Under the pieces are notes generated by a model, which saw nothing but the letters and a program-made list of their open reading frames with translations, was not told the origin of the DNA and ran no database searches. The position numbers were made by a program, and so were the translations under genes. Below are positions 28,259 to 47,682 of a stretch of DNA of 64,000 nt, piece after piece (position 1 is the first letter of the stretch; the number at the start of each line of letters is the position of its first letter). Origin of the DNA: a virus; IMG/VR virus record IMGVR_UViG_3300045534_000133, positions 1-64,000 of that record. One strand, given 5' to 3'.

Positions 28259-29242
28259 TTAGGAAACGGCGTCCTTGAAGAAGTAGCCCAGCTTGTTGCC
28301 GATCAGCTTCTGGGCAAAAGCCATCTCGATCTCGACGCGGTCGGACTTGAGTTGTTCCATGCGGAACGAACGGATACGGCCGCCGCGCGCACCGGCACCG
28401 AGGTGGCCAGTCCACGAGAAAGTGTAGCCAGCCGACGCGGTTTCGAGACCGGGCTCCGGCGCGCAGTAGGCGAACATGGCATGCTTGCCGCCGATGAAGG
28501 CGTGGACGGCCGTTTGGCCTTCCTTGGCCGTGTTCTCCACCGCGTTCATCACCTCGATCGTTTCGATCTCGAACAGGGCAGCCAGAGCAGCCTTGCTGGC
28601 CATGGCCGGGGCACCCGGGGTCTGGCCGTACTTCACGCGGTCGATCACATCGGGGTGGTCCAGCAGGGCGTCATAGACGGCCCGGCCCAGAACCAGCTTG
28701 TTGGGCTCGAAGCCGGTTTCCTGCATCATCTCGCGCTTGGCGCGGCGCACGTCCTCGATCGGAGTCGAGGCGGCGTCATCCCAGCGACGGAACTGGGTGC
28801 CGGTTTCGCCGGACGCGACACCGGCCCGCTCGAATCCCCAGACGCCGGTTGCGAAGAAGCTGGTAACGAACAGTTTCTCGCGCTTGATCAGCGCCTTGTT
28901 GGTCACGAAGATCGTGGCGTGACGATCGGGGGCCAGAACGCTGTCGGCGTTGGCGCGAACTTGGTCGTCGATATCCTTGTGGAAAGCGTAGACCGGCGCG
29001 TAGTACTGATCGGTCCCCAGACGGAAGCCGCCACCCTCGGACTCGGTGCCGGGCGCCCGCACTTTCATTTCGTCGCGGTTGAAGTCGCCCTGATTGAAGG
29101 TCCAGAACAAGTCCGACTGCTTCTGGACCGGAATGTTCGGGAAAATGCTGTCAGCGACGAAGTTGGTCGCGTTCTGCATGTAGGCGACGCTGATGTTGGT
29201 CAGCGGAGTGTTGACGTGCACGTCACCGGGAGTCGGGTTCAT
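28259..29242 (-). CDS. Major capsid protein
   Basis: VN..LTNISVAY.Q...FVAD..FP..PV; P..D........G..PN. Confidence 0.9.
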   Translation of the reverse strand: MNPTPGDVHVNTPLTNISVAYMQNATNFVADSIFPNIPVQKQSDLFWTFNQGDFNRDEMKVRAPGTESEGGGFRLGTDQYYAPVYAFHKDIDDQVRANADSVLAPDRHATIFVTNKALIKREKLFVTSFFATGVWGFERAGVASGETGTQFRRWDDAASTPIEDVRRAKREMMQETGFEPNKLVLGRAVYDALLDHPDVIDRVKYGQTPGAPAMASKAALAALFEIETIEVMNAVENTAKEGQTAVHAFIGGKHAMFAYCAPEPGLETASAGYTFSWTGHLGAGARGGRIRSFRMEQLKSDRVEIEMAFAQKLIGNKLGYFFKDAVS

Positions 29243-29316: not shown

Positions 29317-29682
29317 TTACGCGGGAAGCTGCTTGCCGGAGGTGGTGGTGACGAGGACTTGGAAAATGTCGCCAGCGGCGGCGGCCTCCATGGCCCGGGC
29401 GACAACCCAGACGCTGGCACCGGTGGCCGTGACGAGCGCGCCAGAGCCGTTGCTCATCAGATCAGCGTCCTTGGCGATGTTGCCGCCAGCGACAGCCTTG
29501 GACAGGTGTTCGGTGCAGACGGTGGCGGCTTGGCCGCTGGCCGGGTTGTTCTGCAGGATGCCCAGCGCCTTGGCACCGTTGGCGCACACGGCACCAGCGT
29601 TGGTGACGGCGCGGAACTGCTGCGCGGCCAGATCGGCCGAGGCGATGACGGTGATGTTGCCCTTGGGATTGGCGGTGGTCAT
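29317..29682 (-). CDS. Capsid cement/decoration protein (DUF2190-like)
   Basis: Small Ala/Gly-rich protein upstream of MCP; AGG.I...G......A..AA.AGD...V. Confidence 0.8.
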   Translation of the reverse strand: MTTANPKGNITVIASADLAAQQFRAVTNAGAVCANGAKALGILQNNPASGQAATVCTEHLSKAVAGGNIAKDADLMSNGSGALVTATGASVWVVARAMEAAAAGDIFQVLVTTTSGKQLPA

Positions 29683-29726: not shown

Positions 29727-30779
29727 TTATTGGCCAGCCATCGCGGCGCCAGCGCGGCGCTTGGCCACGATCTGGCCGTACAGGGCGGGGTTGGCGTCGA
29801 GCGCGAGGTCGTAGGCTTGGGCTGCCGAGAGTTCCGGGCGAGCCTTGCGAACTTCGTCCGCCTTGGCCTGCAGGGCAGCCTCGGGGTCGTCCTCGCCGTC
29901 AGTACCCTCGGCGACGGCGACACCGTAGGACTTCATCAGCCCCTTGGCCGCCTTGTTCGTGTCGGCGGCGGAGTACATCGCCTTCTCGACGATGGCGAGC
30001 GCATCAGCATCGGCCGCGCGCAGGGTGCGCAGAGCCTTGCCGACGGCCTCCGGGTCCGCCAAGCCCATCTTGCGGGCCTTGGCCACCTCGGCCTCGTTGT
30101 CGCGGGCCTCGCGATCGGCGCGGTTCTGGACGAACTCGGCGCGCAGGTGTTCCGGCAGGCCCTTGAGAACGACCTCGTCCTGCTCGGCTTGCGTCGGGGC
30201 GGGCTTCGACTTGGCGATCTGCTCGTCCTTGGCGGCCAAAGCGGCGTTGGCCTCGGCCAGAGCGGCCTCGGCAGCCGCAGCACGGCCCTTGGCCACGTTC
30301 GTTTCGCCGTTCAGGACTTCAACGCGGGCCTCAAGGGCGGCGTAGGCGGTGTTCAGTTCCTTGAGGTCCACGACGCTCTCCATAACCATCGACGCGACAG
30401 TGTTTGCCGCTGATTTCGCAACCGGAGAACCGCCGGTTTCGGCTTCGGTCATCAGGCTCGCCACCATGGCATCGCCTTGGGCCAGAAAGTCAGAGACGCT
30501 GATCGAGGAGGCTTCAAGCTGTTCGACCAGATCGGCGTAGGGCTTGAGTCCCTTCTCGATCAGTTCGGCTTCCGAAACTTGGGCGCCCCCGGGGTGCCAC
30601 TGACCTTCACTTCGGTCCCGGTTGTCATACGATTCGTGCGTCTCGGACAGACCCCCTTTGCGAGCCTTGATCACCACAACGTCGGAACCGGGCACGCAGG
30701 CCTCGTCCACCAGCGACAGTTCGCCGATACGCAGGCGCTTGAACACGCGCTTGATTTTCGTCGGAAGTTCCTCGGTCAT
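29727..30779 (-). CDS. Scaffold protein carrying N-terminal prohead-protease strand (ELSLVD)
   Basis: Acidic Ala-rich coiled-coil; ATG 30779 overlaps protease stop; C-terminal A...A...NP.LY. Confidence 0.8.
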   Translation of the reverse strand: MTEELPTKIKRVFKRLRIGELSLVDEACVPGSDVVVIKARKGGLSETHESYDNRDRSEGQWHPGGAQVSEAELIEKGLKPYADLVEQLEASSISVSDFLAQGDAMVASLMTEAETGGSPVAKSAANTVASMVMESVVDLKELNTAYAALEARVEVLNGETNVAKGRAAAAEAALAEANAALAAKDEQIAKSKPAPTQAEQDEVVLKGLPEHLRAEFVQNRADREARDNEAEVAKARKMGLADPEAVGKALRTLRAADADALAIVEKAMYSAADTNKAAKGLMKSYGVAVAEGTDGEDDPEAALQAKADEVRKARPELSAAQAYDLALDANPALYGQIVAKRRAGAAMAGQ

Positions 30780-31201
30780 TTCGCCACCGTTGGGTGAAAG
30801 CTGCCCCTGCCGCCAAGGCTGAACCCCTTGAGTTCGCCCCGGACAACCCTGCTTTTGGCGACCGGGCAGTGCACCTCCATGCCCGCCCACCAGCCGCGTT
30901 TCTTGTGCGTGATGCCCATGGCCTTGGCAAAATCATCGTCGATCAGGACGGACTCAACGATCGCGCCGGTCTGCTTGCCGTCGTGCATCACCTTGGCGAC
31001 GCGTTCTCCAGCCATGAACTCATGCACGGCAGTTCGCAGGACCGGCATCGGGCAGACCTCGCCATCCCAGTCCACGTTCACCGGGCGGCCATCGTCGGAG
31101 GTTACACAGGCCCAGCCGCGCACGAACGAACCGTCCGGCGCAGCCTTCTCGATCTCAAAGTAGAGATGCAGGTCGTCGTCGGTGTCGGTGCCGTCAGTCA
31201 T
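30776..31201 (-). CDS. XkdF-like prohead serine protease core
   Basis: V.GWA, D..G, F......MH, G.IVES, GWW, G.LKGFSLGG. Confidence 0.85.
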   Translation of the reverse strand: MTDGTDTDDDLHLYFEIEKAAPDGSFVRGWACVTSDDGRPVNVDWDGEVCPMPVLRTAVHEFMAGERVAKVMHDGKQTGAIVESVLIDDDFAKAMGITHKKRGWWAGMEVHCPVAKSRVVRGELKGFSLGGRGSFHPTVAK

Positions 31202-31263
31202 GCCGCCCCCGGCCGTAGCTACGGGGACAGACCCCGATTCAGGGGGCGACTATGGCACGGGAT

Positions 31264-31764
31264 TCAGTCGGCGGACAGAGGCAGGCGGAGGATGGCGTAG
31301 ACCGACTCCTCAATCATCACGTCGAGGGCGAACTGGGCTTGCTCGTCGTCCATGCCGTTTTCATGCTTCACCATCAAGTCGAACATGTCACCGGCCAGCC
31401 TCGACCAGTAGGCCTGCATGGCCTCCTCGGGCTCACCAGCGATGCCCACGCTGTCGCCAAAGCCGTACCCCATCTGGTCGGGGCTGTTCCATGGCGTCGT
31501 GGCGTAGTCCGGGTTCCGGCCATAGAAAATGTCGGTCATGGCCTTGGCTTCGGCCTCCACGAACGCCTCGGGGGCCTCGGCTTTGCCTGTTTCGAGATAC
31601 TTGCGGCGGTAGCCCACCAACCGCGTTCCAAACGCCCGGACGACAGACTCCACACCCTCGATCGTGTTGAGGGCAGGCCTGTCATCCCCAAGGACCGGCA
31701 AGTCCTTGAGGATGATATCGGGCCGCACTTCGGCGCTGCCGCCGGGATTGGACGAGTCTGTCAT
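31264..31764 (-). CDS. Acidic hypothetical protein, candidate immunity/partner of the giant protein
   Basis: GAGG RBS; directly downstream of giant ORF. Confidence 0.65.
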   Translation of the reverse strand: MTDSSNPGGSAEVRPDIILKDLPVLGDDRPALNTIEGVESVVRAFGTRLVGYRRKYLETGKAEAPEAFVEAEAKAMTDIFYGRNPDYATTPWNSPDQMGYGFGDSVGIAGEPEEAMQAYWSRLAGDMFDLMVKHENGMDDEQAQFALDVMIEESVYAILRLPLSAD

Positions 31765-31796
31765 GGCCTCAACGTAACCCCTGCCGCTTCAAATAG

Positions 31797-34700
31797 CTAT
31801 AGCTTGGTGAGAAGGCTGTTTTTGTGCGGCGGCAGCAGCGTCACCTCGATCTCAAAGTGGTTGCCCATTTTCTTTGTCCCCAGCAGCACCATGCGAGCGC
31901 CGGGCAGAGAAGTCAGTTCCGCCTCGCTGTCGTAACTGTAGCCGGAGCCCTTGTAGGTCGGCATCATCTTGGCCCCCTTGGCCGCGCGATAGACGATGCG
32001 GGCCCGGGTTTTGGGGTCGGAGCCCGCAAAGCCGGAGGTAGACGTTGGCGACATGCTGTTGCAAGCGCTGCCCGGGTTCTGCAGCACAGTCCCTACTGGC
32101 GCTGACAGCAGGGCCGCCTGCATGTTCGGCTCGACGCGCAGCCACTTGTAGACCGTCGAGCCCTCCGGCAGTTCCACGGCGTCCTTGTGCATGGCGACGT
32201 TTGCGGCAACGAGGTCAATGCTGCCGTGCGTCGTCTTGCCCTGATTGTAGGCATCATTGATGGCGCCAGAGCCCTGCACCGAGTTCATAAATTGCTTGGA
32301 CAGGGGTGAGGCCTTTTCGCGCAGACCCGGGATGCTGTTTTTGAACGAGGCGGGCACCGTCTCGGTGATCGGAGCCTTGGGCAGAAAGTCGGCGCGCTCG
32401 CCCTGAACCTGCCCAAGGGCCATCCAGAAGCCGACGCGCTGGTTCATCGGCATCTGCTTCACCGTCGTCAGCAGGGGCGCCGTCGGGAACGCCTCTGCAA
32501 TCTTGGCCAGAGAGGCTTTCTTGATCGTCTTGGCAGGGACCAGCGGTTTGGGCGGGTTGAACTTGTCGTCCACCGCCTTCATCGTGTCGGACCAGTACCC
32601 CTGCATCTTCATTGAGGGGTGAGCCGAAAACTCTAGCTGCTTGCCCGTCAGTGTGCCCTCGGCGTCGTCAATATGCTCCGGGTACGTCAGGCCTTTCAGC
32701 TTGGTCAGGTTGCCTTCGAGGGCAGCAGCCTCAATCGCATCGACGCTCTGTTGGTTGACCGTGTTTTTCCACGCCTTGGAGGACTTGTCGAAAGTGGGCT
32801 TGGGAGGCAGATCGGCCTTCGTGATCACCACCTTTTTCGGCTTGGCGGGCGTCGGCTCGACAACCTCAACCACCTCCTCGATCTCGTCGGCGGCAGCAGC
32901 GTTCTCGGCAGCACCGGTTAGGGCCGGGTGGGCCAGCTTTTTCTGCCCCGGGACCACCTTGTGCGGAGAGCCCAGCGCGGCCAGCGCATTGTTCGCCAGC
33001 GCAGCCTGCTTTTTGCCGTAGGTGTTGGTGCCGTAGTTCAGACCGAGGATGCCGGACTTGTTGCCGACATTGGCCAGCTTCTCGATCAGGTCGACCTTGG
33101 CGTTGTGGCTGGACGCGTTTGAGTTCGAGGCGTCCAGCTTGGCCGCCGCGAAGTCGGGCAGGGCGGGCTTCACGGTGTCTGCCGTCAGTTCCGCATACAG
33201 GGCGTCGGTGTCGACCGCGCCTTTCGCCTTTTTCCCGGTGGCGATCTCCCAGTTGGTGGCCATCGCCTTCGCGTAAGCGTTTATGGCCGTGGTGTTCGGC
33301 ATGCCCGCATCGAGTTCGGTGCCATACAATGTCCCGGCGAGCGCCTTGGCATGTGTCGAGGCCACCGCTCCCGGCCCGCCCGGCCCGTACTTGCTTTGCA
33401 GCCACGAAATGCCTTCGGAATAAGCGTCACCCGGCAGGGTCGGAGGCAGCGGCTGGATGCCATTGCTGCCCAGACGGACAGCCTGCTTGGCGTAGTACTC
33501 CGCGCTGATCATGTCGAAGACCACAGAGGGGGCACCCGACGCGGTCTTTTCGCCCCACTTCGGCGTCACACCGGCCAGCACGTCATGATAGGTGGCCAGC
33601 GCCTTGCCGTAGCCGCCCAGAGCAACACCTTGCGTGCTGGCTTTGTCGTAAAGATTGTCATTCAAAATGAGTTCGTGAGTGCTTTTTGACGGCGGGAAAC
33701 CCTCTATGTATTTCTTTTTCAGCCAGTTCACGTCTTCCGTGTTGCCGTGCATCCCGGGCCCTTTGGGCGCGGTTGGCATCAATCCGTCCTGCGCATCCAT
33801 GACCGCCAGTTCGGCGTATTCTTGGGCCGACTTCATGTCGGTGATCTCGGGGTAGCCGGATGATGCGGCCGAAGGTGTGCTGGCCAGCGAGACGCCAGCC
33901 GCCATCGTGGTAACGCCGGGCTTGCCGGTGCCGAACTTGTTGTTGGCCTCCTCAAACTCGCTGGCGGTGTAGAGGTACTTCGCGATGGCGTCTGGTATCT
34001 GGGCGATGCTCGCCGGGCTGATGCCGTCGTGAAACGCCGCAAGCTGGCCGTAGTAGGCCGCCACCTTCATGGCATCCCACTTCGTCTTCCCGTCGGTGTT
34101 CATGGCGTTCGTCAGCCATGTGTTGTTCAGCATGCTCAACATCGGCTTGGCGGCCAAGGTCGCCTTGCCCATGGCCTGCTCGTCGGCCTGTATCGTCGCG
34201 ATCGACTCGGCGGCCTTCCCGCCGGGCGACACCACTGGCGGCTCGGCGACGAACGCGCCAGTCTTGGCCGCCACGTCGTACATCGTGCTGGACGCAGCCT
34301 GCGGGGCGTCGCTCGCGGCCGGAAGGTTCATCGGGGCGAGGTTGGCCTTGGCCAGAATCTGGTCCCGGCGTGCCATCAGTTTCGAGGCCAGCTTCTGCTT
34401 GGTGTTCTGGCCGTCGTCCACCCAGTAGGCATCCACCAGCGCGGTGATCTTCTCGTCGGTCATGCCCTTGAGCGCTTCGGCGGAGTCCTGCAGGCCGGTG
34501 GCGTTCATGCTGCCAAACAGACCAGCCGCATCCGCGTTTTTGGCCGGGTCGCGCATCGTTTCCCAGTCCGGTGCACCGGCAGTGAACTCCATGGCCGTCT
34601 TCGGTTGGCCTTGGGCGCGGTACAGCAGGGCGCCGCCCGGGTCGATGTTCACCACCTCGCCGTCTGGCGTCACCAGCAGGTTGTCGCCGCCCATGCCCAC

Positions 34701-37700
34701 CACATCCCAGTTCCCCAGCCACGCATGGACCGCGAACTGCTGCTTGGCCTTGGACCGTTGGCCGGGGGTGCTGATCTTCTGCAGCCCCTCAACCCACTTT
34801 GTGGCCACACCCAGACCGCCACCATACTTGCCGCCGAGATCGACCAGCTTGTACTCGGGCGCGGGGATGCCAGCAGCCTCCATCAGTTTGGACGCCAGCA
34901 CCTCGTTGCGGGCCCGGGCGTCGTCCTTGCCCTGCAGGTTGCCTTTCACCAGCCACTTCTGGCCGTCGGCGTCCTCGTAGAGGCCCTTGGGAGCCGTGCC
35001 GCCGATGCCGTCGCTCTTGATCAGGGTCCAGCCCGAGATGGACTGCGGCCCCAGCTTGCCGTCGATCACTTTGGCCGACTGGGCCGCCATGCCTTTCCCT
35101 TGCCACACGAACATCAGTTCCATGGCGTACTGCCCGACCTGCGCCTTCCACTTCGTGTGGGAGTTCGTCTTCACGTTCGGATTGAAGGCATCCATGATCG
35201 CGAAGTTCTTTTTGTAGAGCGCTGCAGCCGGGGCAATATCGCCCTTCACAGCAGCATCGAAGACCGCCTTCATCTGGTTATAGTAGGTCGCGTTCGCGCC
35301 CGGGCCGGAGCCGTCCTTTTTCCAGCCGATCTTGGGCGGAGCCGGGTAGCCCCCGGAACCGCCACCTTGGTCCTTGAACTGGCCGCCCAGCGGCGTGCCC
35401 TTGGGCCAGCGGTCAACCTTGCTCTCGTCGAACTTTTTGCGGACCTTCACTCCAGTGAGGTCTTCAAGCGCCTCTACAATCGGGTGGTCCGTGTATCCGT
35501 TGTTCAGCCATGTGCGCAGCGTCGAGACGGGCGCCAGCCGGACAGCCTGCGACTCCCAGCCCATGCGGGCAGGGCTGCCGCCGACGCGCTTGGCCAGATA
35601 CATGCGGGCCGTTGACGTGGTGCGCTCGAAGTCGCCCAGAACGCCGGTGATCTCCACCTGCAGACCAGACTCCTCGAACGCTTCCTTGATGGCGTTCGCC
35701 TGCAGGCTCGGCACGTCGTCTTCGTAGGTGCCCTTGGGGAACGTCTGGCGGTAGCCGCCAAAGCCGTTCGTGGGGCTCACAATCCAGACCCGGCCGTCCT
35801 CCTCCTGCACGATCACGCCAGCGCCGATGTTTTTCCCCTTTGGGGCCGTCAGTTCTGGCAGCATGGCTTCAACGGCCGGGTTCTGGCCCGGCACCTTCAC
35901 CCACTCGGCCGCCGTCTGGGGCGGCTTGTAGGCCAGCTTCGTGGGGATGCCCTGCAGCACGGCAGGGGCCGGGCTGTTTGGGGTAAACGTCGCCGTGGCG
36001 TCCGGGTCGTTCCACACCACCTCGGGGCTGGCCTTGGACGGGTATTTGACCCAGACCTCGCCACCGTCATCATCGGTGTGCGGGTGCTTCACAGCGCTCG
36101 ACGGCAGAGAGTACGACTTGTCGGCACCAGTGTCGGTTTTCCCGGTCCACTTCGGGCCGGTCTTCGGGCCGTCGAACGGCTTCGTGATGCCGTTGAAATC
36201 AAGCGGGTGCTTTGCCTTCGGCTTCGGCGTGTCGAACAGCGGACCGCTGCTCCACGTCACCTTGGGCTTCGGCGCAGCATCAGACCCGGGCTTCGGCTGG
36301 AACTTGCCACCGTCCGGGTGGCCCTTTGGGGCCCGGGGGTGCATCCACGACTGCCACAGGCCCTTGATGCCCTTGCGCACGCGCTCGATCGCGCTCGGCT
36401 CGACGGCAGGCTCAACGGGCTCGCTGGCCATCGAAAGGGCCATAGCGAAGGCGTCCATCTCGGCACGCAGAGTGCCGGGCTTGGCCTTGGTGATGCCTAC
36501 GCCTTGGGGGCGGCGGGCTTTGCGCCCTTCGGCTCGGGCGAGGTATTTGCCGACGAGGGTGGTCGCTTCACTCCGAAGACGACCAGCGGCTTGGCGAAGG
36601 GGTGCGGCCCCTTCCGTGGCACCACTGGCATAGTCGTATTCCTTTTTGTCAGGGAAGGCCGAATAGGCCTCGTCGGTCGAAATGTCGTATTTACGCTCAA
36701 GCTGTGCGTCGATCAAGTCCGCCAGCTTATCCGTCGGCACACCGCTGTAGTTCAGCACGATCATCTGCCCGTCAGCAGTCGAGTGACCGCCAATCAGGGG
36801 TTCGCCATCCTCGCCCTTAATCGCCCAGAGGCGGTCATACAGGGTGGAAACAGAGGCCAGATCGCGCTCGCTTTCCGGCAGTTCGATCGTGACGATGCCG
36901 ACCGGCTCCATGCCTTCGGCGGCGGTTTCGGAAACCACCATCATGCTGTCCTGTGACAGCGCGAAGCCCAGCACCTTGGAGAGTTCGATGGCCTTGGCCG
37001 GGTCATCGACGCGAACCGACAGGCTCGGGTTCGTCGCACCCAGATAGCCGCCGATCTGCTCCGAAAACTCACCCTTGCTGCCGACAGCCTCCAGCGCTTT
37101 CGGGACCAGATCGGCCGAAACCGACTGGCTGATCTCGAACTTGTCGGCGTCGTCCAGAGCGTTCCAACGTGCCGTCAGACCCGCATCGTTCGGGTCCGGC
37201 GCCACCTCGAAAAACACCTTGGCGTCAGGGTTGCCCCCTATGCCTTGGGAGCCTCCAGCGGTCGTTTGCGGAGCGACACCTGCCCCTCCCGCATCCATTT
37301 GGCCCGGGCCTCCATCCGTTCCTCCGCCGCCGGGCCGTAGGGCCCGTCCCGCCACGAGGTTTTTGACGCCGATGGATTCGGTGATGCGCTCGGAGCCTTG
37401 GGGTCCGTTAACGTCGATTTCGGCATAGCCGTCCGCCTCTCCCTTGATGGTCTGATATGTGGTTTTGGGCTTGTCGCCGATCGAGGCGAAGTAGCCGGGG
37501 TCGATCAGCCGCCCGGTTTTCAAATAGCGCGCGGCCATGCGGCGCGCAGCCTCGTCAGGAGTCACCATGACGTGCAACAGCTCGACCGTATAGCCTTCGG
37601 ATTGGTAGTCGTCAATAAGCCCGGCCAGTTTTTCTCGGTTGTGGCCGACGACCGGGTAAATGATGTTGGCGCCGCTGGCGCGCAGTTCCATCCCGACAGC

Positions 37701-38411
37701 ATCGCTGATGAACTTGGACTCTTCGTGAACGGCTGCAGCGCCAAGACCACCGGCGAACTCGGGCACCAGTTTTTTGGCGTCATCGCTGTCCCAGATCGCG
37801 GCGCCCTGCTGCTCGGCCAGCAGTTCAGACACGGTGGATTTACCGGCGGCCGGAGGCCCCACCACGACCGTCATTTTCCGATCGTAGGCCAGCTTGCCCT
37901 TGGCGTAGCCCTTCGCCGTGGCCACCAGATCGTCAAGGGTTTCGTCGATATCCTTGCCGCCCGCGTAGGTGCGCCCACCCACGAAGGCCTGCATCTGCTC
38001 GTTCGTCATGTCCGGCGTGACCGTCGGCGTGATCAGCCGCATCTTCTCGGCGGCAGGCTCCAGAGCCGCCATCAGTTCAGCAGCGGGGGCTTTGTCTGCG
38101 ATCTTCGCCCAGACCGCATCAGCAGCTTCCTGCCCGATATCCTTGAGGACCGTAGGGTGAGGCTCGCCCGGCATAACCTTGGCAGGGTTGGTCTTGCTTC
38201 CGACGAACCCGACCGATGCCATGGCCTTGCCCTCGCTGCCGTGGCCGCCGGGCTTTTCGACAGCGCCCAAGGCCGGGCCTTCGTTGGGCTTGCCGTCATT
38301 GATCTTTCCGTCGCCGTCGCCGTCGCGAGGGTCGCGCGCCTTGGCGACGCTCTCCTCAACCCGGGCCATCAGGGCGGCTATGCGCTGTCCGAGTTGTTCG
38401 CCGTCTGCCAT
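31797..38411 (-). CDS. Giant multi-enzyme protein (~2204 aa): Zeta-like P-loop kinase, unknown domain, NUDIX, PI3/4K-HipA-like kinase, ADP-ribosyltransferase-like
   Basis: GPPAAGKS; PKG...AIKEAFEESGL; WLVK..NEVLA..AWLGNWD..DN..IDPGG; VYK..CNS..EAE. Confidence 0.88.
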   Translation of the reverse strand: MADGEQLGQRIAALMARVEESVAKARDPRDGDGDGKINDGKPNEGPALGAVEKPGGHGSEGKAMASVGFVGSKTNPAKVMPGEPHPTVLKDIGQEAADAVWAKIADKAPAAELMAALEPAAEKMRLITPTVTPDMTNEQMQAFVGGRTYAGGKDIDETLDDLVATAKGYAKGKLAYDRKMTVVVGPPAAGKSTVSELLAEQQGAAIWDSDDAKKLVPEFAGGLGAAAVHEESKFISDAVGMELRASGANIIYPVVGHNREKLAGLIDDYQSEGYTVELLHVMVTPDEAARRMAARYLKTGRLIDPGYFASIGDKPKTTYQTIKGEADGYAEIDVNGPQGSERITESIGVKNLVAGRALRPGGGGTDGGPGQMDAGGAGVAPQTTAGGSQGIGGNPDAKVFFEVAPDPNDAGLTARWNALDDADKFEISQSVSADLVPKALEAVGSKGEFSEQIGGYLGATNPSLSVRVDDPAKAIELSKVLGFALSQDSMMVVSETAAEGMEPVGIVTIELPESERDLASVSTLYDRLWAIKGEDGEPLIGGHSTADGQMIVLNYSGVPTDKLADLIDAQLERKYDISTDEAYSAFPDKKEYDYASGATEGAAPLRQAAGRLRSEATTLVGKYLARAEGRKARRPQGVGITKAKPGTLRAEMDAFAMALSMASEPVEPAVEPSAIERVRKGIKGLWQSWMHPRAPKGHPDGGKFQPKPGSDAAPKPKVTWSSGPLFDTPKPKAKHPLDFNGITKPFDGPKTGPKWTGKTDTGADKSYSLPSSAVKHPHTDDDGGEVWVKYPSKASPEVVWNDPDATATFTPNSPAPAVLQGIPTKLAYKPPQTAAEWVKVPGQNPAVEAMLPELTAPKGKNIGAGVIVQEEDGRVWIVSPTNGFGGYRQTFPKGTYEDDVPSLQANAIKEAFEESGLQVEITGVLGDFERTTSTARMYLAKRVGGSPARMGWESQAVRLAPVSTLRTWLNNGYTDHPIVEALEDLTGVKVRKKFDESKVDRWPKGTPLGGQFKDQGGGSGGYPAPPKIGWKKDGSGPGANATYYNQMKAVFDAAVKGDIAPAAALYKKNFAIMDAFNPNVKTNSHTKWKAQVGQYAMELMFVWQGKGMAAQSAKVIDGKLGPQSISGWTLIKSDGIGGTAPKGLYEDADGQKWLVKGNLQGKDDARARNEVLASKLMEAAGIPAPEYKLVDLGGKYGGGLGVATKWVEGLQKISTPGQRSKAKQQFAVHAWLGNWDVVGMGGDNLLVTPDGEVVNIDPGGALLYRAQGQPKTAMEFTAGAPDWETMRDPAKNADAAGLFGSMNATGLQDSAEALKGMTDEKITALVDAYWVDDGQNTKQKLASKLMARRDQILAKANLAPMNLPAASDAPQAASSTMYDVAAKTGAFVAEPPVVSPGGKAAESIATIQADEQAMGKATLAAKPMLSMLNNTWLTNAMNTDGKTKWDAMKVAAYYGQLAAFHDGISPASIAQIPDAIAKYLYTASEFEEANNKFGTGKPGVTTMAAGVSLASTPSAASSGYPEITDMKSAQEYAELAVMDAQDGLMPTAPKGPGMHGNTEDVNWLKKKYIEGFPPSKSTHELILNDNLYDKASTQGVALGGYGKALATYHDVLAGVTPKWGEKTASGAPSVVFDMISAEYYAKQAVRLGSNGIQPLPPTLPGDAYSEGISWLQSKYGPGGPGAVASTHAKALAGTLYGTELDAGMPNTTAINAYAKAMATNWEIATGKKAKGAVDTDALYAELTADTVKPALPDFAAAKLDASNSNASSHNAKVDLIEKLANVGNKSGILGLNYGTNTYGKKQAALANNALAALGSPHKVVPGQKKLAHPALTGAAENAAAADEIEEVVEVVEPTPAKPKKVVITKADLPPKPTFDKSSKAWKNTVNQQSVDAIEAAALEGNLTKLKGLTYPEHIDDAEGTLTGKQLEFSAHPSMKMQGYWSDTMKAVDDKFNPPKPLVPAKTIKKASLAKIAEAFPTAPLLTTVKQMPMNQRVGFWMALGQVQGERADFLPKAPITETVPASFKNSIPGLREKASPLSKQFMNSVQGSGAINDAYNQGKTTHGSIDLVAANVAMHKDAVELPEGSTVYKWLRVEPNMQAALLSAPVGTVLQNPGSACNSMSPTSTSGFAGSDPKTRARIVYRAAKGAKMMPTYKGSGYSYDSEAELTSLPGARMVLLGTKKMGNHFEIEVTLLPPHKNSLLTKL

Positions 38412-38441
38412 GGTGGCCCCCTGATTCCGTGCAGCGAGCCT

Positions 38442-38618
38442 ATGCGAACGACGGACGACTTGACAGCCTACCGTCGCCTCACCGGTCTCGCTCGCGCGCT
38501 TGGCGAGGAGGCTGACGACTGCATGTCGCCGATCACCGCCGCCGCGTTCAGGGCAGCGTCTCACTTCCTCACCCGTCTGGCCAGCGCCGTTTACACCAAG
38601 GGGCTCAAGCTGGACTGA
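38442..38618 (+). CDS. Small antisense-oriented ORF (58 aa) between MuF and the giant gene
   Basis: MRTTDDLTAYRRLTGLARALGEEADD...KLD; fills the intergenic gap; weak RBS. Confidence 0.4.
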   Translation: MRTTDDLTAYRRLTGLARALGEEADDCMSPITAAAFRAASHFLTRLASAVYTKGLKLD

Positions 38619-39741
38619 CAGGCTTCGGCGGCTCGATCGTGCGAATAAACTGGGTGCAACGACAGTTGGGATGAATAGGCGGCATCATCACCGGCCCCAC
38701 GGGCGTGGCGAAGGGCTGGGCGAACTTCACACCCTGTGGCGGGTTCATGCCCGGGACCGGCGCGCACACCTCGCACAGGCGCTCGTCGGCGGCCACCACC
38801 CACCGGCGGCGGACCAAGTCCTCCGACAGCAGGCCCTTCTCGATCGCCTGCCTGAAAGCCTCCTGAATCCCCATGTTGGTGGCGCGCAGGCTCTCCGTGC
38901 GGGCAATCGTGCGGGACCGGAACTGCAGGTATTTGCGCTTGTAGGCCGCCACCATCTTGTCGATCTGGGCAGGCGTCAGGGGCTTTTTCGTTGCCTGCGC
39001 CTTCGCGAGCGCGGCGTCGTACCGGAAATCGCGCAGGCGGCGGTTCAGGATGCCGTCTTTCGGGTCGCCGTCGATACCGGGCTTGAACACCTGCCGCCCG
39101 TTCACCCGGTCGATCTGCTGGCCCAACCCCCAACTTGCTGCAGACCGTTTCAGGTGAAAGGTTTCGAGTTCTTTTCGGAAGTTCCCGATCGCGTTGGCTT
39201 GTCGTGTGGTGAGCCCAATGGCTTCTCTGATTTTTTGGGCCTGCTTAATGGGGCCCTGACCGACACGCATGTTTTCCACCAGCACATCACGGATGGTCTC
39301 GCGCGTCGTGCCGCTGATCTGTTTGATGAGGCCAAGGTCATACTCCTGCAGCCAACGGGTGAGAGCGGGATTGATGCGATCGAAGTGGAACTCTGCCCGG
39401 CCGATGAACGGTGCCGTCCCGGGGGCCGCCAAGGCCTCAATCCCGGCCGCCCAGACCGCATCCTGCAGGGCGTCTTTCATCTTGCCCGCCATCATGGCTT
39501 CGGCCTGATCGGCGGCGGCTCCCACTACGGCCAGAACCTTGTCGCCCTGCCCAGATAGCAGCGCCTCTAACAGGGCATCCATATCCAGCATGTCGCCGTG
39601 CGCCTGCAGGAGGTCGAGAACGGCCTTGGCGATCTGCGGCTCAAACTTCTCGGCCAGCTTCTCGGCCAGCGACAGGTCTTCCGGCTTGACCTTGGCTACG
39701 GCGTGATCGTGCCCGCACAGTCTGGAAAATGTCAGCTTCAT
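38605..39741 (-). CDS. MuF/SPP1 gp7-like minor head protein
   Basis: R.RTIARTE, W....DER.C..C, PP.HPNCRC. Confidence 0.92.
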   Translation of the reverse strand: MKLTFSRLCGHDHAVAKVKPEDLSLAEKLAEKFEPQIAKAVLDLLQAHGDMLDMDALLEALLSGQGDKVLAVVGAAADQAEAMMAGKMKDALQDAVWAAGIEALAAPGTAPFIGRAEFHFDRINPALTRWLQEYDLGLIKQISGTTRETIRDVLVENMRVGQGPIKQAQKIREAIGLTTRQANAIGNFRKELETFHLKRSAASWGLGQQIDRVNGRQVFKPGIDGDPKDGILNRRLRDFRYDAALAKAQATKKPLTPAQIDKMVAAYKRKYLQFRSRTIARTESLRATNMGIQEAFRQAIEKGLLSEDLVRRRWVVAADERLCEVCAPVPGMNPPQGVKFAQPFATPVGPVMMPPIHPNCRCTQFIRTIEPPKPVSPA

Positions 39742-39811: not shown

Positions 39812-39925
39812 ATGACACAGAAACCTAACCGGCGCGGCCCCGCTGCGCCATCCCTCGCATGGGCGCCTCTGCAGGCGTTCGTGATCTTCGGCTTTATTGC
39901 CGCCATCTGGGCCATTCTGGCCTGA
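39812..39925 (+). CDS. Small membrane protein (37 aa)
   Basis: GGAGG RBS; MTQKPNRRG...FVIFGFIAAIWAILA. Confidence 0.6.
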   Translation: MTQKPNRRGPAAPSLAWAPLQAFVIFGFIAAIWAILA

Positions 39926-39948
39926 CCCCTTCACAGGAAACCACCACG

Positions 39949-40701
39949 ATGAGCAAGCAACCGAACCTGCCCGGAACGGCGCCGGTCAAAAAGAAGCAGT
40001 ACACCGAATATCCGGGGCGCCGCTGCCCGCATGCGGTGAACCGCCCTCTGCCCCACATCAAATATCAGATTGAAAACCTGCCGGGGTTCCGCACTGTCCT
40101 GCAGCAAACCGGCCTTAGTGTCGCCTCAACCGGCCACTCCGCTGCGCGTCGCATTTTGGGGGCTCACGTCAAACACGGGACCGACTACGCGGTGTTTGTT
40201 GACGAGAACGGTTACGGCGGTTTCGTGCCGAAACCGGGCACCATTCCCGAGGGCGCACGCCTGACGAACCCAAACATTTGCCAATGGGCCTTGCCCAAGC
40301 CGGTCCCCACCGCTGTGGTGCACGGGGTGGTGCATGGGAATGACTCGACCTTCCCTCCCACCTGCACCGGCGCAATCCGGCCTGATCGCCCCGACCTGAA
40401 ACCGTCGGAGTGGGCCAAAGCCCTGACAGCGGTGGTGGGCGCGATCAATCCGGTGACGTTCCGCTATGGCCGGAACGTCACCGACGAGACGGTGGCCGAG
40501 AGCGTTGGACTTCCGGTCGCCGCCATCACCTTGACCCGCCTTGAGGAATACGGCGAGCCGGTGCCCACGGTTAGCCCGGCCGAGTTAATCGCCCTGCGCA
40601 ATGAGGCTACCTCACGGGCCGAGGCGTTCCTGAAATACGCCGCTGACGAGGAAACCTTCGCCGCCCGCATGAACGCCGCCCTCGCGAAACTGGGAGCCTG
40701 A
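39949..40701 (+). CDS. Hypothetical protein
   Basis: AGGA RBS within CCCTTCACAGGA leader. Confidence 0.7.
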   Translation: MSKQPNLPGTAPVKKKQYTEYPGRRCPHAVNRPLPHIKYQIENLPGFRTVLQQTGLSVASTGHSAARRILGAHVKHGTDYAVFVDENGYGGFVPKPGTIPEGARLTNPNICQWALPKPVPTAVVHGVVHGNDSTFPPTCTGAIRPDRPDLKPSEWAKALTAVVGAINPVTFRYGRNVTDETVAESVGLPVAAITLTRLEEYGEPVPTVSPAELIALRNEATSRAEAFLKYAADEETFAARMNAALAKLGA

Positions 40702-40703
40702 TC

Positions 40704-41096
40704 ATGGCCAACACTCCCATCAGAGACGCCAAGCGCGCCGCCACCCGGGCGAAGATCGAGACGGCAGCCAAGGCCGTGTTCGACGCCAAAGGCTGGGAGG
40801 GCGGCGGCATCCGCCTGATCGCCGAGACGGCTGGCGTGTCCATCGGTGCCATCTTCGCCATCTGGCCTGACGGCAAGCGGGCCCTCTGGAGCGAGATTAT
40901 CAAGACCGAGCCGCCGGTGGACGGAGCGCTCTGGCGCTCCGCCCCGGGCATGCTGGCCATCCTTCGGGCCCTGCAGGCAGCGGAGGACATGAATCAGGCC
41001 GTCGGGCTCAAGGCTATGACTACTGAAACCCGCGTGGCGATTGACGCCATCGTGGCCAGCGCCACCACCCCCATGCCGTTCGAGGTGGGCCGATGA
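40704..41096 (+). CDS. TetR-type HTH protein
   Basis: TR..I..AA..VF...G......IA..AGVS.GAIF..W..K..L. Confidence 0.8.
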   Translation: MANTPIRDAKRAATRAKIETAAKAVFDAKGWEGGGIRLIAETAGVSIGAIFAIWPDGKRALWSEIIKTEPPVDGALWRSAPGMLAILRALQAAEDMNQAVGLKAMTTETRVAIDAIVASATTPMPFEVGR

Positions 41097-41455
41097 ACCC
41101 GGCCCCCGAGAGCGCATCCTACCCCGTCGCGGGCGCCGCCGTGGCGTGCGGCGTCGATATCGGCATGGCGCAGCGCTACTGCTGGGCCAACCGGGTGTGG
41201 CTGCTGAACCCTTCCGGGCCGACGCGCCGGGCTTTGGAGGGGGCCTACAATGCCATCCTGCAGGTGTACGGCGACCAGACCACGGCCGCCCTGCAGGAGC
41301 GGCTGGAGGCGGCTATCATGGAGGACCGCATCTACTGGCCGGTCCCGGGCTGGAAAGAGGCGATGGCCGGGCAGCCTGATCGGCCCCTGCCCGACGTGGA
41401 CCGCACTGATGACGACGGCGTGGAGCCGCCGGAGCAGCCGGAGCCGATCGAGTAG
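41093..41455 (+). CDS. Hypothetical protein
   Basis: ATGA coupling to upstream gene. Confidence 0.65.
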   Translation: MNPAPESASYPVAGAAVACGVDIGMAQRYCWANRVWLLNPSGPTRRALEGAYNAILQVYGDQTTAALQERLEAAIMEDRIYWPVPGWKEAMAGQPDRPLPDVDRTDDDGVEPPEQPEPIE

Positions 41456-41524
41456 CGAAGCCGGGGCTGTCCATTTTTGTCAGCTATGCTATGGAGGGCC
41501 CCCGGCTCTGCAACAGGTGAACCC

Positions 41525-41722
41525 GTGACTGAATCCGCCAAACCCAAGGCCCGCCGTGGCTTCGCCTGCATGGACCCGGCCCGCGTCGCCGAGATCGCAG
41601 CCAAGGGTGGTCGCTCTGTGCCGGACGAGAAGCGTTCATTCTCGAAAGACCGCACACTGGCCGAGACCTCCGGCCGCAAGGGAGGCCTCGCTGGGGCCGG
41701 GAAAACGAAAAAGCCGGTCTGA
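41525..41722 (+). CDS. KGG-motif general stress protein (Con-10/YciG-like)
   Basis: RGFACMDP....IAAKGG......RSFS.D..LA...GRKGG. Confidence 0.88.
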   Translation: MTESAKPKARRGFACMDPARVAEIAAKGGRSVPDEKRSFSKDRTLAETSGRKGGLAGAGKTKKPV

Positions 41723-41800
41723 TCATTTTCCCGCTTGCTATATCAGTTCTCTGATATATGTTCCTCCCATAGCCTAGCTATCACTTGGGAGTGAAACGAC

Positions 41801-42004
41801 ATGATCACCTACGAAAAGCGAACCTTCGGGAAGGTTCCGGCCAAGACCGAGTATGTGGTGCGCCTTGATCGCCGCATGGTGGGCCGCATCCGGCCGTTCG
41901 AGGGCGGCTACCGCTACGAGCCCAAGGGCGCGCTCAACAGCATGATGGGCGCAACCTTCCCCACTGTCGCCGCCGCCAAGGCCTCGATCGAGGGCACCGA
42001 CTGA
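41801..42004 (+). CDS. Hypothetical protein
   Basis: GGAG RBS after promoter-like AT-rich gap. Confidence 0.7.
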   Translation: MITYEKRTFGKVPAKTEYVVRLDRRMVGRIRPFEGGYRYEPKGALNSMMGATFPTVAAAKASIEGTD

Positions 42005-42426
42005 TGGACGCCCTGAATACCCTTTCCATCACTGACCAGTTCGTTGTGCTGCGTCAGTTCATCGGCACCGACAAACAGCCCTACAGGGGCCTCCCGGGGC
42101 CTGTGATGGTCTTCCGGGTTAACGCGCTGCAGGCCAAGCCCAGTGAGCCCGAGGACGCCCTGTTTGAGCCCCCGGTGCGCCGCATCGACCTGCGCTCCGA
42201 CGATCGCATCCGCTTCACCGAGCAAGGTGCCGACGTGAAAACCGAACCGCGCGGCGCAAGGCCTTGGCTGCAGGCTCACCCGGCTGCCATGGGCCGCGCC
42301 AACGGCGCCTGCATCGTGCGCCTCACGTCGGAGGGGCGGCGTCGGCTGGCCCTGCTGAACGACCTGATCGAGACACATCAGGCAGCCCCATCATCCGTCC
42401 ACGAACTGATATCTGCATTGTCGTAA
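42004..42426 (+). CDS. Hypothetical protein
   Basis: TGATG coupling. Confidence 0.6.
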   Translation: MDALNTLSITDQFVVLRQFIGTDKQPYRGLPGPVMVFRVNALQAKPSEPEDALFEPPVRRIDLRSDDRIRFTEQGADVKTEPRGARPWLQAHPAAMGRANGACIVRLTSEGRRRLALLNDLIETHQAAPSSVHELISALS

Positions 42427-42470
42427 CAGCTAGAGCGTGCCACCGTATCACTTCACAGAGGAACAACCCC

Positions 42471-42668
42471 ATGATCGACATGCAAGACCCTCGCGACCAC
42501 CGCCGTGTGGCCGCCATGACTACCGACCAAGCCAGCCACAGAGGCTGGGACTTCCGCCCGTGCGACGAGCCGCCGCTGTGGTTCAGGGCCGTGGCCGAGG
42601 TGCTGCGTCCGCGCAGCCTCATCATCTTGGCTGCAATGGCCGGGGTTATCAGCCTGTGGTTTCTGTGA
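42471..42668 (+). CDS. Small protein with C-terminal TM helix
   Basis: GAGGA RBS; hydrophobic C-terminus. Confidence 0.6.
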   Translation: MIDMQDPRDHRRVAAMTTDQASHRGWDFRPCDEPPLWFRAVAEVLRPRSLIILAAMAGVISLWFL

Positions 42669-42874
42669 TGGAAAAAGTTCAGTTGCAGTTACCGACGACG
42701 CCATACCCGCTCGCCACCGCGCCGGTTTACGACCGGACCCGCGATGAGTTTGCAATGGCCGCACTGACGGGGCTTTTGGCGGCTCGCTCATACGACACCA
42801 CTGACGGTCTTGTTTATGCAGCAACCGCCTACACCCTTGCCGACGCCATGCTTAAGCAGAGAGAAGCATCATGA
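42668..42874 (+). CDS. Conserved small phage protein
   Basis: RDEFAMAAL.GLLA...AY.LADAML..R motif. Confidence 0.75.
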   Translation: MEKVQLQLPTTPYPLATAPVYDRTRDEFAMAALTGLLAARSYDTTDGLVYAATAYTLADAMLKQREAS

Positions 42875-43080
42875 CCTCGGATGCCACATACACCACGTCG
42901 GGCGCCAGCATGACGTTGACGCCGGGCCAGACCATTTTCATCAACGGAAAGCGCCATGTGGTCCGCGAGGTCTTCACGCACACGTTCACGGCGGACCCCG
43001 ACACTCGCAATCACCAGACACGGCGGGTTGATCGCGCGAAAGCCCGCGCCGCCGCCAAGTCCAAGAGGAAAGCATCATGA
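42871..43080 (+). CDS. Hypothetical protein
   Basis: ATGA coupling on both sides. Confidence 0.6.
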   Translation: MTSDATYTTSGASMTLTPGQTIFINGKRHVVREVFTHTFTADPDTRNHQTRRVDRAKARAAAKSKRKAS

Positions 43081-43739
43081 CCCCCGACGAACTCCCCGCT
43101 GATATGGAGGGGCGCACCCCTGCACCAGAGGGGGAGGCCCTTTTGTGTCGCCTGTGTTCAATGGGTTTGAAGGAGTGCGATTGCATCTCCGAACCCCGCT
43201 ACGCATCCCCTGTCGTTCCTGCACCAGAGGGGGTGTTTGTTAGCGAGACTTGCGAAGGTGAAGTCTGCTGGTGCGGAAAGCCTGCGGTCCGAAAGGTCGG
43301 GGAGGAGTTTGCGGATGACGAGCCGAACCCTAACCGCCACAACCTCACTCGGTATATCTGCGCCCACCACTTCGCTGAACTCATGGGGCCAGCGGGGGCG
43401 CGGTCTGTCGGCATTGCCCCTGTCGTTCCGGTAGGGAGCGGGGAGGCGGTGGCGCGAGCCACCTGTCAAGACTGCGGTGGCCATATCGAGGGCTGGATTT
43501 GCCAATCGTGCGACCGTCAGTTCCGGGAAAACGACGCGGGCAAACTCGTTTTTGAGGACCAGCCTGTCGTTCCGGTAGGGGTGAGCAGGGAGGAGATTAT
43601 CAAGGCCGTTCGTCCGGTTCTAGACCGGCACCCAATGATCGACAGCAGCCAGTCGCACAAGCTGGACATTCAAGCCGGGTGGGTGGCCGACGCCGTCCTC
43701 GCAGCCCTTACAGGAGAAGACCCCAGAGGGGCAGGGTGA
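43077..43739 (+). CDS. Modular Cys-rich (zinc-finger) protein
   Basis: Three Cys clusters separated by PAPEG/PVVP repeats. Confidence 0.7.
   Translation: MTPDELPADMEGRTPAPEGEALLCRLCSMGLKECDCISEPRYASPVVPAPEGVFVSETCEGEVCWCGKPAVRKVGEEFADDEPNPNRHNLTRYICAHHFAELMGPAGARSVGIAPVVPVGSGEAVARATCQDCGGHIEGWICQSCDRQFRENDAGKLVFEDQPVVPVGVSREEIIKAVRPVLDRHPMIDSSQSHKLDIQAGWVADAVLAALTGEDPRGAG
43119..43580 (+). repeat. Short direct repeats at domain junctions
   Basis: cctgcaccagaggggg at 43119 and 43218; cctgtcgttcc(ggtaggg) at 43209, 43419, 43563. Confidence 0.85.
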
Positions 43740-43936
43740 CCAGCCGCGTCGCGCGCTGGTACGCCACCGACGGCGAACTGGACTTCCTCTGGGAGGCCTA
43801 CGTCCATGAGGGCCAGCACAGGGCCCGGCTGACGGTGATCTGCAGCTACCCCGGGGACTCTGCAACCGGCACCGGGGCGAACGACAACGAGGCCCTATGG
43901 AGCGCGTGGGCCGCTTATCAGGACAGACCACAATGA
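43736..43936 (+). CDS. Hypothetical protein
   Basis: GTGA coupling. Confidence 0.55.
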   Translation: MTSRVARWYATDGELDFLWEAYVHEGQHRARLTVICSYPGDSATGTGANDNEALWSAWAAYQDRPQ

Positions 43937-44319
43937 AGCGGTGCGAGCGAGAAGCCGTCGATATCATCCGGTCCATGCTGGAACCTCACGGCATCACATG
44001 CCGGACAGAACCGGGCGGCAAGCACCTTGCCGTCCACGTCGATCACAACGGCGGCCACCACAAGTTCGCCATCTCCAGCAGTCCCCTGAATCGGGACCAC
44101 CAGCTTACAAACGTGCGTCAGCAGGTGACCGGCTGGATGGAGGCACAAGGCCTCGTCCCCGCGCGCGGGAGGGCTGCACAGAGGCCTAACAAGCGGAGGC
44201 GACAAACCCGGGTAAAGTCCACCATCTATCGCTACGAGGTGTCCATCGACGAAGCCGATCACGGCCCGTCCAGCGACCCTTGGCGGGCGTTGCGGGCCCT
44301 ACAGGGGCAAGAGGCATGA
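43933..44319 (+). CDS. HicA-like (dsRBD fold) protein
   Basis: G......GGKH..V........SSSP......N.R pattern. Confidence 0.5.
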   Translation: MKRCEREAVDIIRSMLEPHGITCRTEPGGKHLAVHVDHNGGHHKFAISSSPLNRDHQLTNVRQQVTGWMEAQGLVPARGRAAQRPNKRRRQTRVKSTIYRYEVSIDEADHGPSSDPWRALRALQGQEA

Positions 44320-45053: not shown

Positions 45054-45151
45054 AATATCAGGGTTGCAATATATCTCAAGGTGTGTTATAATAGCCTCAC
45101 TGGCCAATCGGGCCAGCGACTGTTCTTTCATACCGTGAATAGGAATACACG

Positions 45152-45385: not shown

Positions 45386-45487
45386 CGGCCCGGCCCCCGG
45401 CTCACCCCGGGGGCCATTTTCGTCCTTGACGCCATATCAGACGCCTGACATATCACGCTCTAGCTATCCCCTTCACGGAGACCTGAC

Positions 45488-47028: not shown

Positions 47029-47108
47029 CCAGACGGGGCGAATCCGCCTATGCGAGATTCCCAGAACCTCTGACTTGGAGGTGTCCGTGTTGCTTGGGGC
47101 GAAAACCG

Positions 47109-47597: not shown

Positions 47598-47682
47598 GCG
47601 TAACCAGCGCTCGCCCCGGGACGAAACAGGCCCGGGGGTTGCGTCACACGCTGGGCTGACAGCGCGGAAGGTGGATGCCAGA

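Follow-up and report, generated by a model that had tools for sequence, protein, structure and literature searches.

Phage polyvalent proteins were defined in 2017 by Iyer, Burroughs, Anand, de Souza and Aravind and were predicted to be loaded into virion particles and injected into the host (PMC5512222). In that paper many unrelated effector domains share one polypeptide encoded among packaging or virion genes, two or more disparate effector domains being the criterion, and processing is assigned to built-in zincin-like metallopeptidase domains, which are frequent but not universal. In this study we analysed a stretch of 64,000 nucleotides (hereafter the window), positions 1 to 64,000 of the 72,325-base virus record IMGVR_UViG_3300045534_000133, in which one protein of 2204 amino acids (aa), encoded inside the head-assembly genes and hereafter called the giant, joins five enzyme domains. 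It resembles the polyvalent proteins in the number and disparity of its effector domains and in the surroundings of its gene, but unlike many of them it has no detectable built-in metallopeptidase, as Pfam searches, run also with segments at E-values up to 5, returned no peptidase family.

In phage T4, internal proteins reportedly carry an N-terminal targeting peptide that the prohead protease removes at a consensus also marking the scaffold core. This protease cuts after Glu, and the prohead protease motif of phages SPN3US and phiKZ, again with a cut after Glu, likewise differs from the Lys motif described below. T4 has a separate small gene for each cargo, whereas the giant consists of several fused modules with internal copies of a leader element, and Lys would be the residue before the cut (position P1). 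Phage P1 is said to load very large enzymes of its Dar anti-restriction system (DarB, DdrB), which are unrelated to the giant, into the head through the helper proteins DarA/Hdf, for use against host defence on entry. DdrB is processed before packaging, and T4 Alt is a head-packaged ADP-ribosyltransferase (ART) that is injected with the DNA (PMC5512222). Many head-internal, host-entering proteins of SPN3US and phiKZ are cut by an essential prohead protease at head maturation (PMC7411985, PMC10052503); these phages are 240-kb myoviruses, and their ejection proteins are unrelated to the giant. A survey of nicotinamide adenine dinucleotide (NAD) and ADP-ribose biology from 2022 found that ART and Nudix proteins are often packaged in virions (PMC9503650). 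Finally, Jamet et al. (2017) described, in temperate phages, variable toxin domains tied to the head morphogenesis protein MuF and followed by a small ORF (open reading frame) taken as an immunity gene (PMC5576092). There MuF is fused N-terminally to the toxin, whereas in the window MuF is separate and the cargo has five enzyme domains; a small ORF downstream is common to both. Packaged polyvalent effectors and protease-cut internal proteins are already described, and the giant is a richly equipped member of this class, so that the label of a candidate new system, given to the locus by a first-pass annotation, was too strong (PMC5512222, PMC9503650, PMC7411985). Our literature searches did not find in print a NUDIX-kinase-ART family in the slot between MuF and protease, the leader element, or a Lys motif common to scaffold and leader. 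A term search of PMC5512222 gave 0 mentions of Zeta toxin, 0 of HipA and one of NUDIX, and neither the leader element nor the logic of PhixK occurs in the passages of it that were examined.

We lean towards the view that the giant is a phage polyvalent effector incorporated into the prohead, cut by the head maturation protease at leader sites and carried into the next host along with the DNA; its packaging, cutting and injection are what we infer from the observations that follow. All head-operon genes and giant segments given below lie on the minus strand, with positions counted in the window. From upstream to downstream, the operon holds a MuF-like head morphogenesis protein of 378 aa (38605..39741; PF04233 E 3.9e-10, phrog_3517 E 8e-51), the giant (P0001 in our protein set; 31797..38411), a 166-aa frame termed ORF166 (31264..31764), a head maturation serine protease of the XkdF/HK97 type (141 aa; 30776..31201; PF14550 E 5.2e-7, 30.2 bits against a cut-off of 24), a 351-aa scaffold protein (29727..30782) whose ATG overlaps the protease stop as ATGA, a small head protein of 121 aa (29317..29682), and a gpE-type major capsid protein of 327 aa (28259..29242; phrog_1005 E 1.6e-94; PF03864). 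The giant thus lies between MuF and prohead protease, where the first-pass annotation had placed it. MuF is a gene of its own, 193 nucleotides (nt) upstream of the ATG at 38411 that we take as the giant's start, and the frame of the giant remains open upstream of this ATG as far as a GTG at 38564 (ORF 31797-38564).

The place of the giant between MuF and protease is conserved. A protein search at E<=0.001 returned 93 relatives, and scanning IMG/VR with the giant's kinase region gave at least 599 pattern matches, at least 576 of which were confirmed; 80 loci were fetched. In 20 of these 80 loci the cargo is flanked by MuF upstream and by the protease downstream; a further 12 show only MuF and 8 only the protease, many of these being cut by contig ends, so that 40/80 share neighbours. 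The cultured relatives Pseudomonas phage KPP23 and Roseobacter phage RDJL Phi 1 (capsid similarity 58.6% and 51.5%) have no such cargo: MuF is followed directly by protease, scaffold, small head protein and capsid, and because MuF adjoins the protease in these two phages, the giant and ORF166 can be regarded as an insert at a fixed slot. Comparing the slot across related phages, as the first-pass annotation had proposed, also revealed other contents. In locus L006, whose MuF is 56% identical, it holds a different protein of 671 aa (L006:2930-4942) with no Pfam or Atlas family, and in L013, likewise in L014, a second cargo of 502 aa (L013:955-2460) is found between MuF and the main cargo. This second cargo consists of an N-terminal leader, an 85-aa module discussed below, a linker rich in Pro and Ala and a C-terminal region that contains a HEAAH zincin-like motif, and again no Pfam or Atlas family was found for it.

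If a maturation protease acts in this operon, its sites may be recognizable in the proteins that it destroys. The window scaffold carries 11 [VIL]xK[ASG] motifs, exactly those listed in the first-pass annotation, where 1.4 would be expected, and this count was reached by 0 of 2000 shuffles. The first five scaffolds of relatives examined had 9-12 motifs each (1.5-1.9 expected), and all 22 distinct scaffolds of the fetched loci were enriched at p<=0.01, with 233 motifs seen against 34.3 expected (6.79x). The scaffold motif is specific for Lys, since the variants PhixR[ASG], PhixE and PhixQ gave 0.48x, 1.19x and 0.90x, the reversed motif 1.59x, and PhixD was likewise without comparable enrichment. 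As had also been claimed, the window protease has IEKA inside and VAK at its end (in all 3 [VI]AK against 0.1 expected), and MuF has VAK at residues 15-17; over the related loci the proteases hold 57 motifs against 11.3 expected and the MuF proteins 72 against 39.1. The window capsid has 0 motifs, the capsids of related loci are depleted (4 against 13.2 expected, Poisson p 0.003) and their portals have 5 against 7.3. A motif that is dense in a protein destined for removal and scarce in the shell has, we infer, the look of a maturation-protease site. Literature searches, with supplements outside their reach, found no printed cleavage specificity for an XkdF-type protease. KPP23 virions contain portal, decoration (small head) protein and capsid, and neither scaffold nor protease (PMC4031330), which fits removal of the scaffold; the decoration protein detected there by mass spectrometry, KPP23 ORF086, is the syntenic counterpart of the 121-aa small head protein of the window.

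The same motif recurs in a leader element of the cargo proteins, which consists of an amphipathic Ala/Leu/Arg-rich helix, PhixK[AS], a Gly/Pro/Lys-rich stretch and then RWPxG..GGQ[FW]. Between NUDIX and kinase, RWPxGxPLGGQ[FW] was listed in 40 instances (one an overlapping double) in 38 of 94 proteins scanned, and 21 relatives have a second RWP copy within 120 residues of the N-terminus, after a helix that ends in PhixK. Among 89 representatives below 70% identity, 53 of 73 RWP elements have [VIL]xK[ASG] within 30 residues upstream. The density of the motif upstream of RWP is 6.6x that of the rest (59 sites over 2106 positions, compared with 551 over 128,919), with a binomial p of 2e-27 that is not a true probability, the sequences being related. 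A hidden Markov model (HMM) made from 31 N-terminal leaders of relatives, with the window protein left out, matched the giant as the sole protein among 732 frames of the window. The first match (aa 666-709; 36285..36416; independent E-value (iE) 6.9e-6) is an internal leader copy with the helix, VRKG at residue 678 as its PhixK, and then HPRAPKGHPDGGKF; the second (aa 992-1013; 35373..35438; iE 1.8e-5) is the core of another copy, which reads VRKK..RWPKGTPLGGQF and precedes the kinase. At this pre-kinase place more distant relatives have PhixKA, namely VGKA in P0005, IAKA in P0006 and IEKA in P0008. The motif sites of the giant further include VAKA at 22 and ITKA at 640, the latter in a stretch where the predicted local distance difference test score (pLDDT) of the model is under 50.

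The leader HMM also matches the N-termini of two other cargoes, the 671-aa protein of L006, whose leader is 59% identical to that of P0030 over residues 1-57, and the 502-aa protein of L013 and L014. Past its leader, the L006 protein has ~70 residues that match giant residues 996-1083 (BLAST E 3e-4) and otherwise no significant match to the giant. An N-terminal leader with PhixK[AS] is thus present in the 21 relatives listed and in two other cargoes, and is internal in the giant. From about residue 666 onwards the giant has the look of a standard cargo with its leader, in front of which a block of Zeta kinase and polyvalent module has been fused. Among the relatives, the core architecture consists of NUDIX, kinase, helical repeats and a C-terminal ART or ART-like domain; the N-terminal region together with the Zeta domain is common only to three close relatives and P0007, and the Zeta domain alone to P0069 and P0084. 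Relatives carry the Pfam domains PF18760 and PF18857, and true fusions to MuF occur in 4 of the 93. In two ~90-kb phages, fHe-Yen8-01 and ST4, the modules are found as separate genes, a NUDIX protein of 251-272 aa that aligns to giant residues 764-982 and one large protein with kinase and ART. The GenBank record of Yersinia phage fHe-Yen8-01 annotates both its kinase-ART protein and its separate NUDIX protein as particle associated.

All five domain calls of the first-pass annotation were borne out at the places it had given, and each of its coordinates and motifs was found again in the sequence. The Zeta-toxin-like P-loop kinase domain (aa 179-325; 37437..37877; PF06414 E 5.4e-16, 59.1 bits against a cut-off of 22.3) has the Walker A motif GPPAAGKST at residues 185-193. 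The second domain (aa 395-635; 36507..37229; model pLDDT 83.5) is a polyvalent-protein module with a tandem ferredoxin-like fold and a weak likeness to phage S-adenosylmethionine (SAM) lyase. In BFVD it has 17 matches at E<=0.001 (best 6e-27), which are segments of large uncultured-phage proteins, those with a name being proteins with a large polyvalent protein associated domain (LPD-type); at the sequence level it was found in 19 relatives, of which 16 are long proteins that mostly carry PF18760/PF18857. For the likeness to SAM lyase there are three weak and partly dependent signals, which we take as a lead only: a comparison with T3 SAM lyase 8bb1_E (probability 1.0, template modelling (TM) scores 0.33/0.55, a moderate fold likeness), a match to PF23780, the phage SAM lyase family, that falls below its cut-off (E 0.016, 15.6 bits against 28), and an Atlas feature score for PF23780 clusters of 0.79, under the 0.9 bar. 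The NUDIX module (aa 764-985, Pfam core aa 861-965; 35457..36122; PF00293 E 9.5e-8, 32.6 bits against a cut-off of 21.1) has a Nudix box reading KEAFEE, with Lys in place of the usual Arg; its K909, E910, E913 and E914, the metal-binding Glu residues included, are invariant over 47 sequences, and its profile matches the Ap4A hydrolase 3i7u (E 1.3e-9).

The fourth domain (aa 1121-1360; 34332..35051; model pLDDT 86.2) is a protein-kinase-like domain of the CtkA/HipA/PI3K type. Its best Foldseek match is CtkA of H. pylori (3akl, E 4.2e-5, TM 0.41/0.56), followed by the PI3K and Hanks kinases Vps34, PI3K-gamma and PknB, and K1156, E1170, D1236, N1244 and D1257 do not vary over 47-51 sequences. Membership of HipA_C (aa 1136-1194) fails at 20-23.7 bits against a cut-off of 30.5, a profile search with the domain against the PDB gave zero matches, and PADLOC returned one weak match for the kinase segment (E 0.0045) and none for the other five pieces. 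Single-sequence searches of the PDB with the kinase, ART, Zeta and then-unnamed segments gave nothing significant, and profiles and models were required.

Between kinase and ART lie ~650 residues of helical repeats, which contain a conserved helical module of ~85 aa (aa 1745-1830; 32922..33179) found in 40 of the 93 relatives at up to 72% identity. This module, the best conserved non-enzymatic stretch of the family, has two copies in the ART proteins of fHe-Yen8-01 and ST4 and one in the leader-bearing 502-aa cargo of L013; neither Atlas nor Pfam assigns it to a family, and it may serve anchoring or packaging. Such a long helical region, with the best conserved non-enzymatic module in it, is what one would expect if the giant were mainly a structural protein, internal to the head or part of an ejection channel, with enzyme domains of secondary importance. 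We regard this as very improbable, as the catalytic residues of NUDIX, kinase and ART (ExE) are invariant across 47 sequences and the close relatives KPP23 and RDJL Phi 1 do without such a gene.

The C-terminal domain (31800..32291) has the ART fold of the VIP2/C3/iota type. Pfam itself makes no ART call in the window protein; a profile of all 47 sequences matches VIP2 (1qs2, E 1.6e-14), and a profile from the 23 relatives without a Pfam ART call (24-row subset) matches Vis (4xzj, E 1.2e-6). The canonical catalytic Arg and Ser-Thr-Ser of R-S-E ARTs are not found in the window protein, while the ExE is, giving a variant triad of K2089, C2117-N-S2119 and E2163-x-E2165. Over the 47 sequences the column of the catalytic Arg holds R in 34, K in 12 and G in 1, the first Ser of Ser-Thr-Ser is replaced by Cys in 16, and the Glu-x-Glu is present in all 47; the Lys/Cys form is a conserved variant and not decay.

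Downstream of the giant, ORF166 is a predicted cognate, immunity-like inhibitor of the ART domain. Pfam finds no domain in it, Atlas no family, and none of its 22 homologues has a name. The homologues lie 33-305 nt past the cargo stop, some of them in loci where the queries detected no protease, scaffold or capsid. Among the 69 loci with a cargo gene complete at its 3' end, ORF166 is present in 19 and absent in 12 of those with the window-type cargo C-terminus, and present in 6 and absent in 32 of those with another C-terminus, a linkage with a Fisher p of 1.3e-4 over loci that are related and non-independent. When giant residues 1999-2204 were modelled in complex with ORF166, both partners being supplied as alignments, the score was 0.66 (median of three runs), a value reached by 58 of 80 solved complexes and by 2 of 110 mismatched pairs, while the best of three controls scored 0.00; the runs share at least 52% of contacts, and the pLDDT of the partner is at least 81. 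The modelled contacts involve, on the ART side, neighbours of the Arg/Lys column and a segment ending just before the Cys-Asn-Ser motif, and on the ORF166 side an invariant Trp and neighbours of an invariant Leu and of a near-invariant C-terminal Gly. From this model we predict that ORF166 binds the ART domain as an inhibitor.

An inhibitor-like gene downstream suits a toxin-immunity logic (PMC5576092), and could suggest that the giant is not a virion component at all, acting instead as a late enzyme set or toxin in the producing cell or upon release at lysis, as has been proposed for some MuF toxins; that MuF is missing from the KPP23 virion list would be in keeping with this. We nevertheless find it improbable. 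In 40 of 80 loci the cargo occupies a fixed slot inside the head operon, fusions to MuF occur among the relatives, homologues are annotated as particle associated, and the N-terminal leader is common to unrelated cargoes at the same slot.

If the giant is instead a packaged and processed effector, as we favour, its life cycle could be as follows. The leader would bring the cargo into the assembling head, where the XkdF/HK97-type protease would cut after Lys in PhixK[ASG] and thereby destroy the scaffold. The cargo would be cut at leader sites, at about residue 680 and perhaps at 642 and 24, the pre-kinase site being degenerate in the window phage, and the expected pieces would be one with the Zeta kinase and the SAM-lyase-like module and one with the NUDIX domain, possibly joined to kinase and ART. 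These predicted boundaries coincide with gene boundaries in the phages with split modules, fHe-Yen8-01 and ST4. After ejection the enzymes would act early, the NUDIX domain and the P-loop kinase on nucleotides or NAD-derived molecules, and the kinase and the ART by modifying host proteins, and ORF166 would hold the ART silent in the producing cell.

Several observations weigh against this reading. Over its full length the giant shows no enrichment of the motif (10 seen against 9.0 expected, p 0.42), and neither is the cargo family (379 against 339 over 47 proteins), so that the enrichment suggested by the first-pass annotation holds for the scaffolds, with capsids depleted, and not for the cargo. 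Its claim that the motif falls in the linkers of the giant stands in part. VRKG at 678 and the pre-kinase site are just upstream of RWPxG..GGQ[FW], and linker sites are conserved in relatives to the extent of the 53 in 73 RWP elements; however, the pre-kinase VRKK is outside the motif, and three of the ten sites of the giant (436, 1130 and 1154) lie in folded parts of two models. One of these folded sites is the most conserved of all, kept in 41 of 46 relatives because it is part of the strand that holds the invariant kinase lysine. The region around VAKA scores no leader: a third, N-terminal copy, suggested by the look of residues 8-41, was rejected at a non-significant HMM iE of 9.9. Part of the enrichment in the proteases may reflect a conserved motif beside the catalytic His (VAKA-MH in L006, VHKA-MH in KPP23) rather than self-cutting sites, and all counts over relatives are phylogenetically non-independent. 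By the queries used, 40 of the 80 loci have neither MuF nor a window-type protease. MuF was undetected in KPP23 virions (PMC4031330), and closeness to MuF is therefore weak proof of packaging, while literature searches gave no paper behind the particle-associated annotation of fHe-Yen8-01. As to function, the likeness of aa 395-635 to SAM lyase is under every curated threshold, and because Lys stands for the catalytic Arg and Cys-Asn-Ser for Ser-Thr-Ser, the ART-fold domain is a variant of uncertain chemistry.

The motif before RWP could also simply mark where a conserved helix ends, or serve for docking. Along these lines, the giant might be packaged and ejected intact, with the PhixK[AS] of the leader docking to scaffold, portal or DNA, so that the scaffold is cut and the cargo escapes. 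The lack of overall enrichment in giant and family and the degenerate pre-kinase site of the window lineage speak for this alternative. The N4 virion RNA polymerase and P1 DarB are reportedly large proteins that are carried whole. Full-length transfer is also described for ArdC-type plasmid proteins (PMC5512222). We still judge intact delivery unlikely, as the motif is conserved in linkers that are otherwise variable and Gly/Pro-rich (53/73) and the predicted module boundaries equal the split-gene boundaries. Taken together, what the first-pass annotation observed is confirmed, and its interpretation, packaging followed by cutting of the cargo, is partly supported.

The His of MHxG and the Ser of GFSxGG of the protease are kept in 5 of 5 homologues. 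In relatives, the N-termini of the scaffolds show a match to the final strand of Peptidase_S78 (positions 128-161 in a profile of 165; E 5e-4 and 0.042; L006:5808-6020 and L008:17818-18030). They also match phrog_21715 at positions 115-147, of which the window protease ORF matches positions 4-106. A strand of the E[IVL]S[LFV]V type was found in 22/22 scaffold N-termini examined, while the N-terminal variant of the window scaffold, ELSLVDEACVPG, gave zero matches to protease profiles. Judging from these profile matches, the HK97-type protease fold seems to be split over the protease and scaffold genes. A programmed frameshift between the two genes was considered and dropped, because the window, with its ATGA overlap, and L006, with a 2-nt gap in another frame, share no slippery context. 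A tblastn search with the scaffold against 50,697 phage records gave no match.

A more general scheme, which is conceivable although we doubt it, would be that helix-PhixK[AS]-RWPxG..GGQ[FW] is a portable cargo tag that loads any fused protein into the prohead, where the protein is cut at the Lys motif of the scaffold. Cargoes fused in series would keep their tags, so that one giant gene yields several injected enzymes, and a protease fold completed by the N-terminal strand of the scaffold would tie together protease, scaffold and cargo processing.

The phage with this head operon is an uncultured siphovirus of 62-67% G+C, whose record has a CheckV completeness of 100% and which also encodes a large terminase, a Mu-type portal, a tail tube protein, a tape measure protein and a J-like tail protein. 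The tape measure protein (1360 aa; 19392-23474, minus strand) contains an M23 peptidase domain; the J-like central tail fibre protein has a length of 2852 aa (9095-17653, minus strand). Portal (53419-54981) and MuF (38605-39741) are separated by 13.7 kb in the window, and the gap (39859-53400) holds a plus-strand gene block including a DNA methyltransferase (44280-45053) as well as an 842-aa minus-strand ORF without family (50149-52677); in the related loci L008 and L010 the portal is within ~2.3 kb of MuF.

As the general concept is already in print, the gain from this locus is a testable mechanism and a new family and not a new kind of system. If leader and Lys motif work as we propose, they would provide a readable rule for head packing and cut sites in a large uncultured clade, and with a cargo family of at least 576 loci in IMG/VR, sets of injected effectors would become predictable from sequence. 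The same rule would also supply a tag with which foreign proteins could be loaded into siphovirus capsids. The enzyme set of the giant, with NUDIX, two kinases, an ART variant and possibly a SAM-lyase-like module, points to early action on nucleotide signals and host proteins, and it bears on how phages disarm host defence before their first gene expression.

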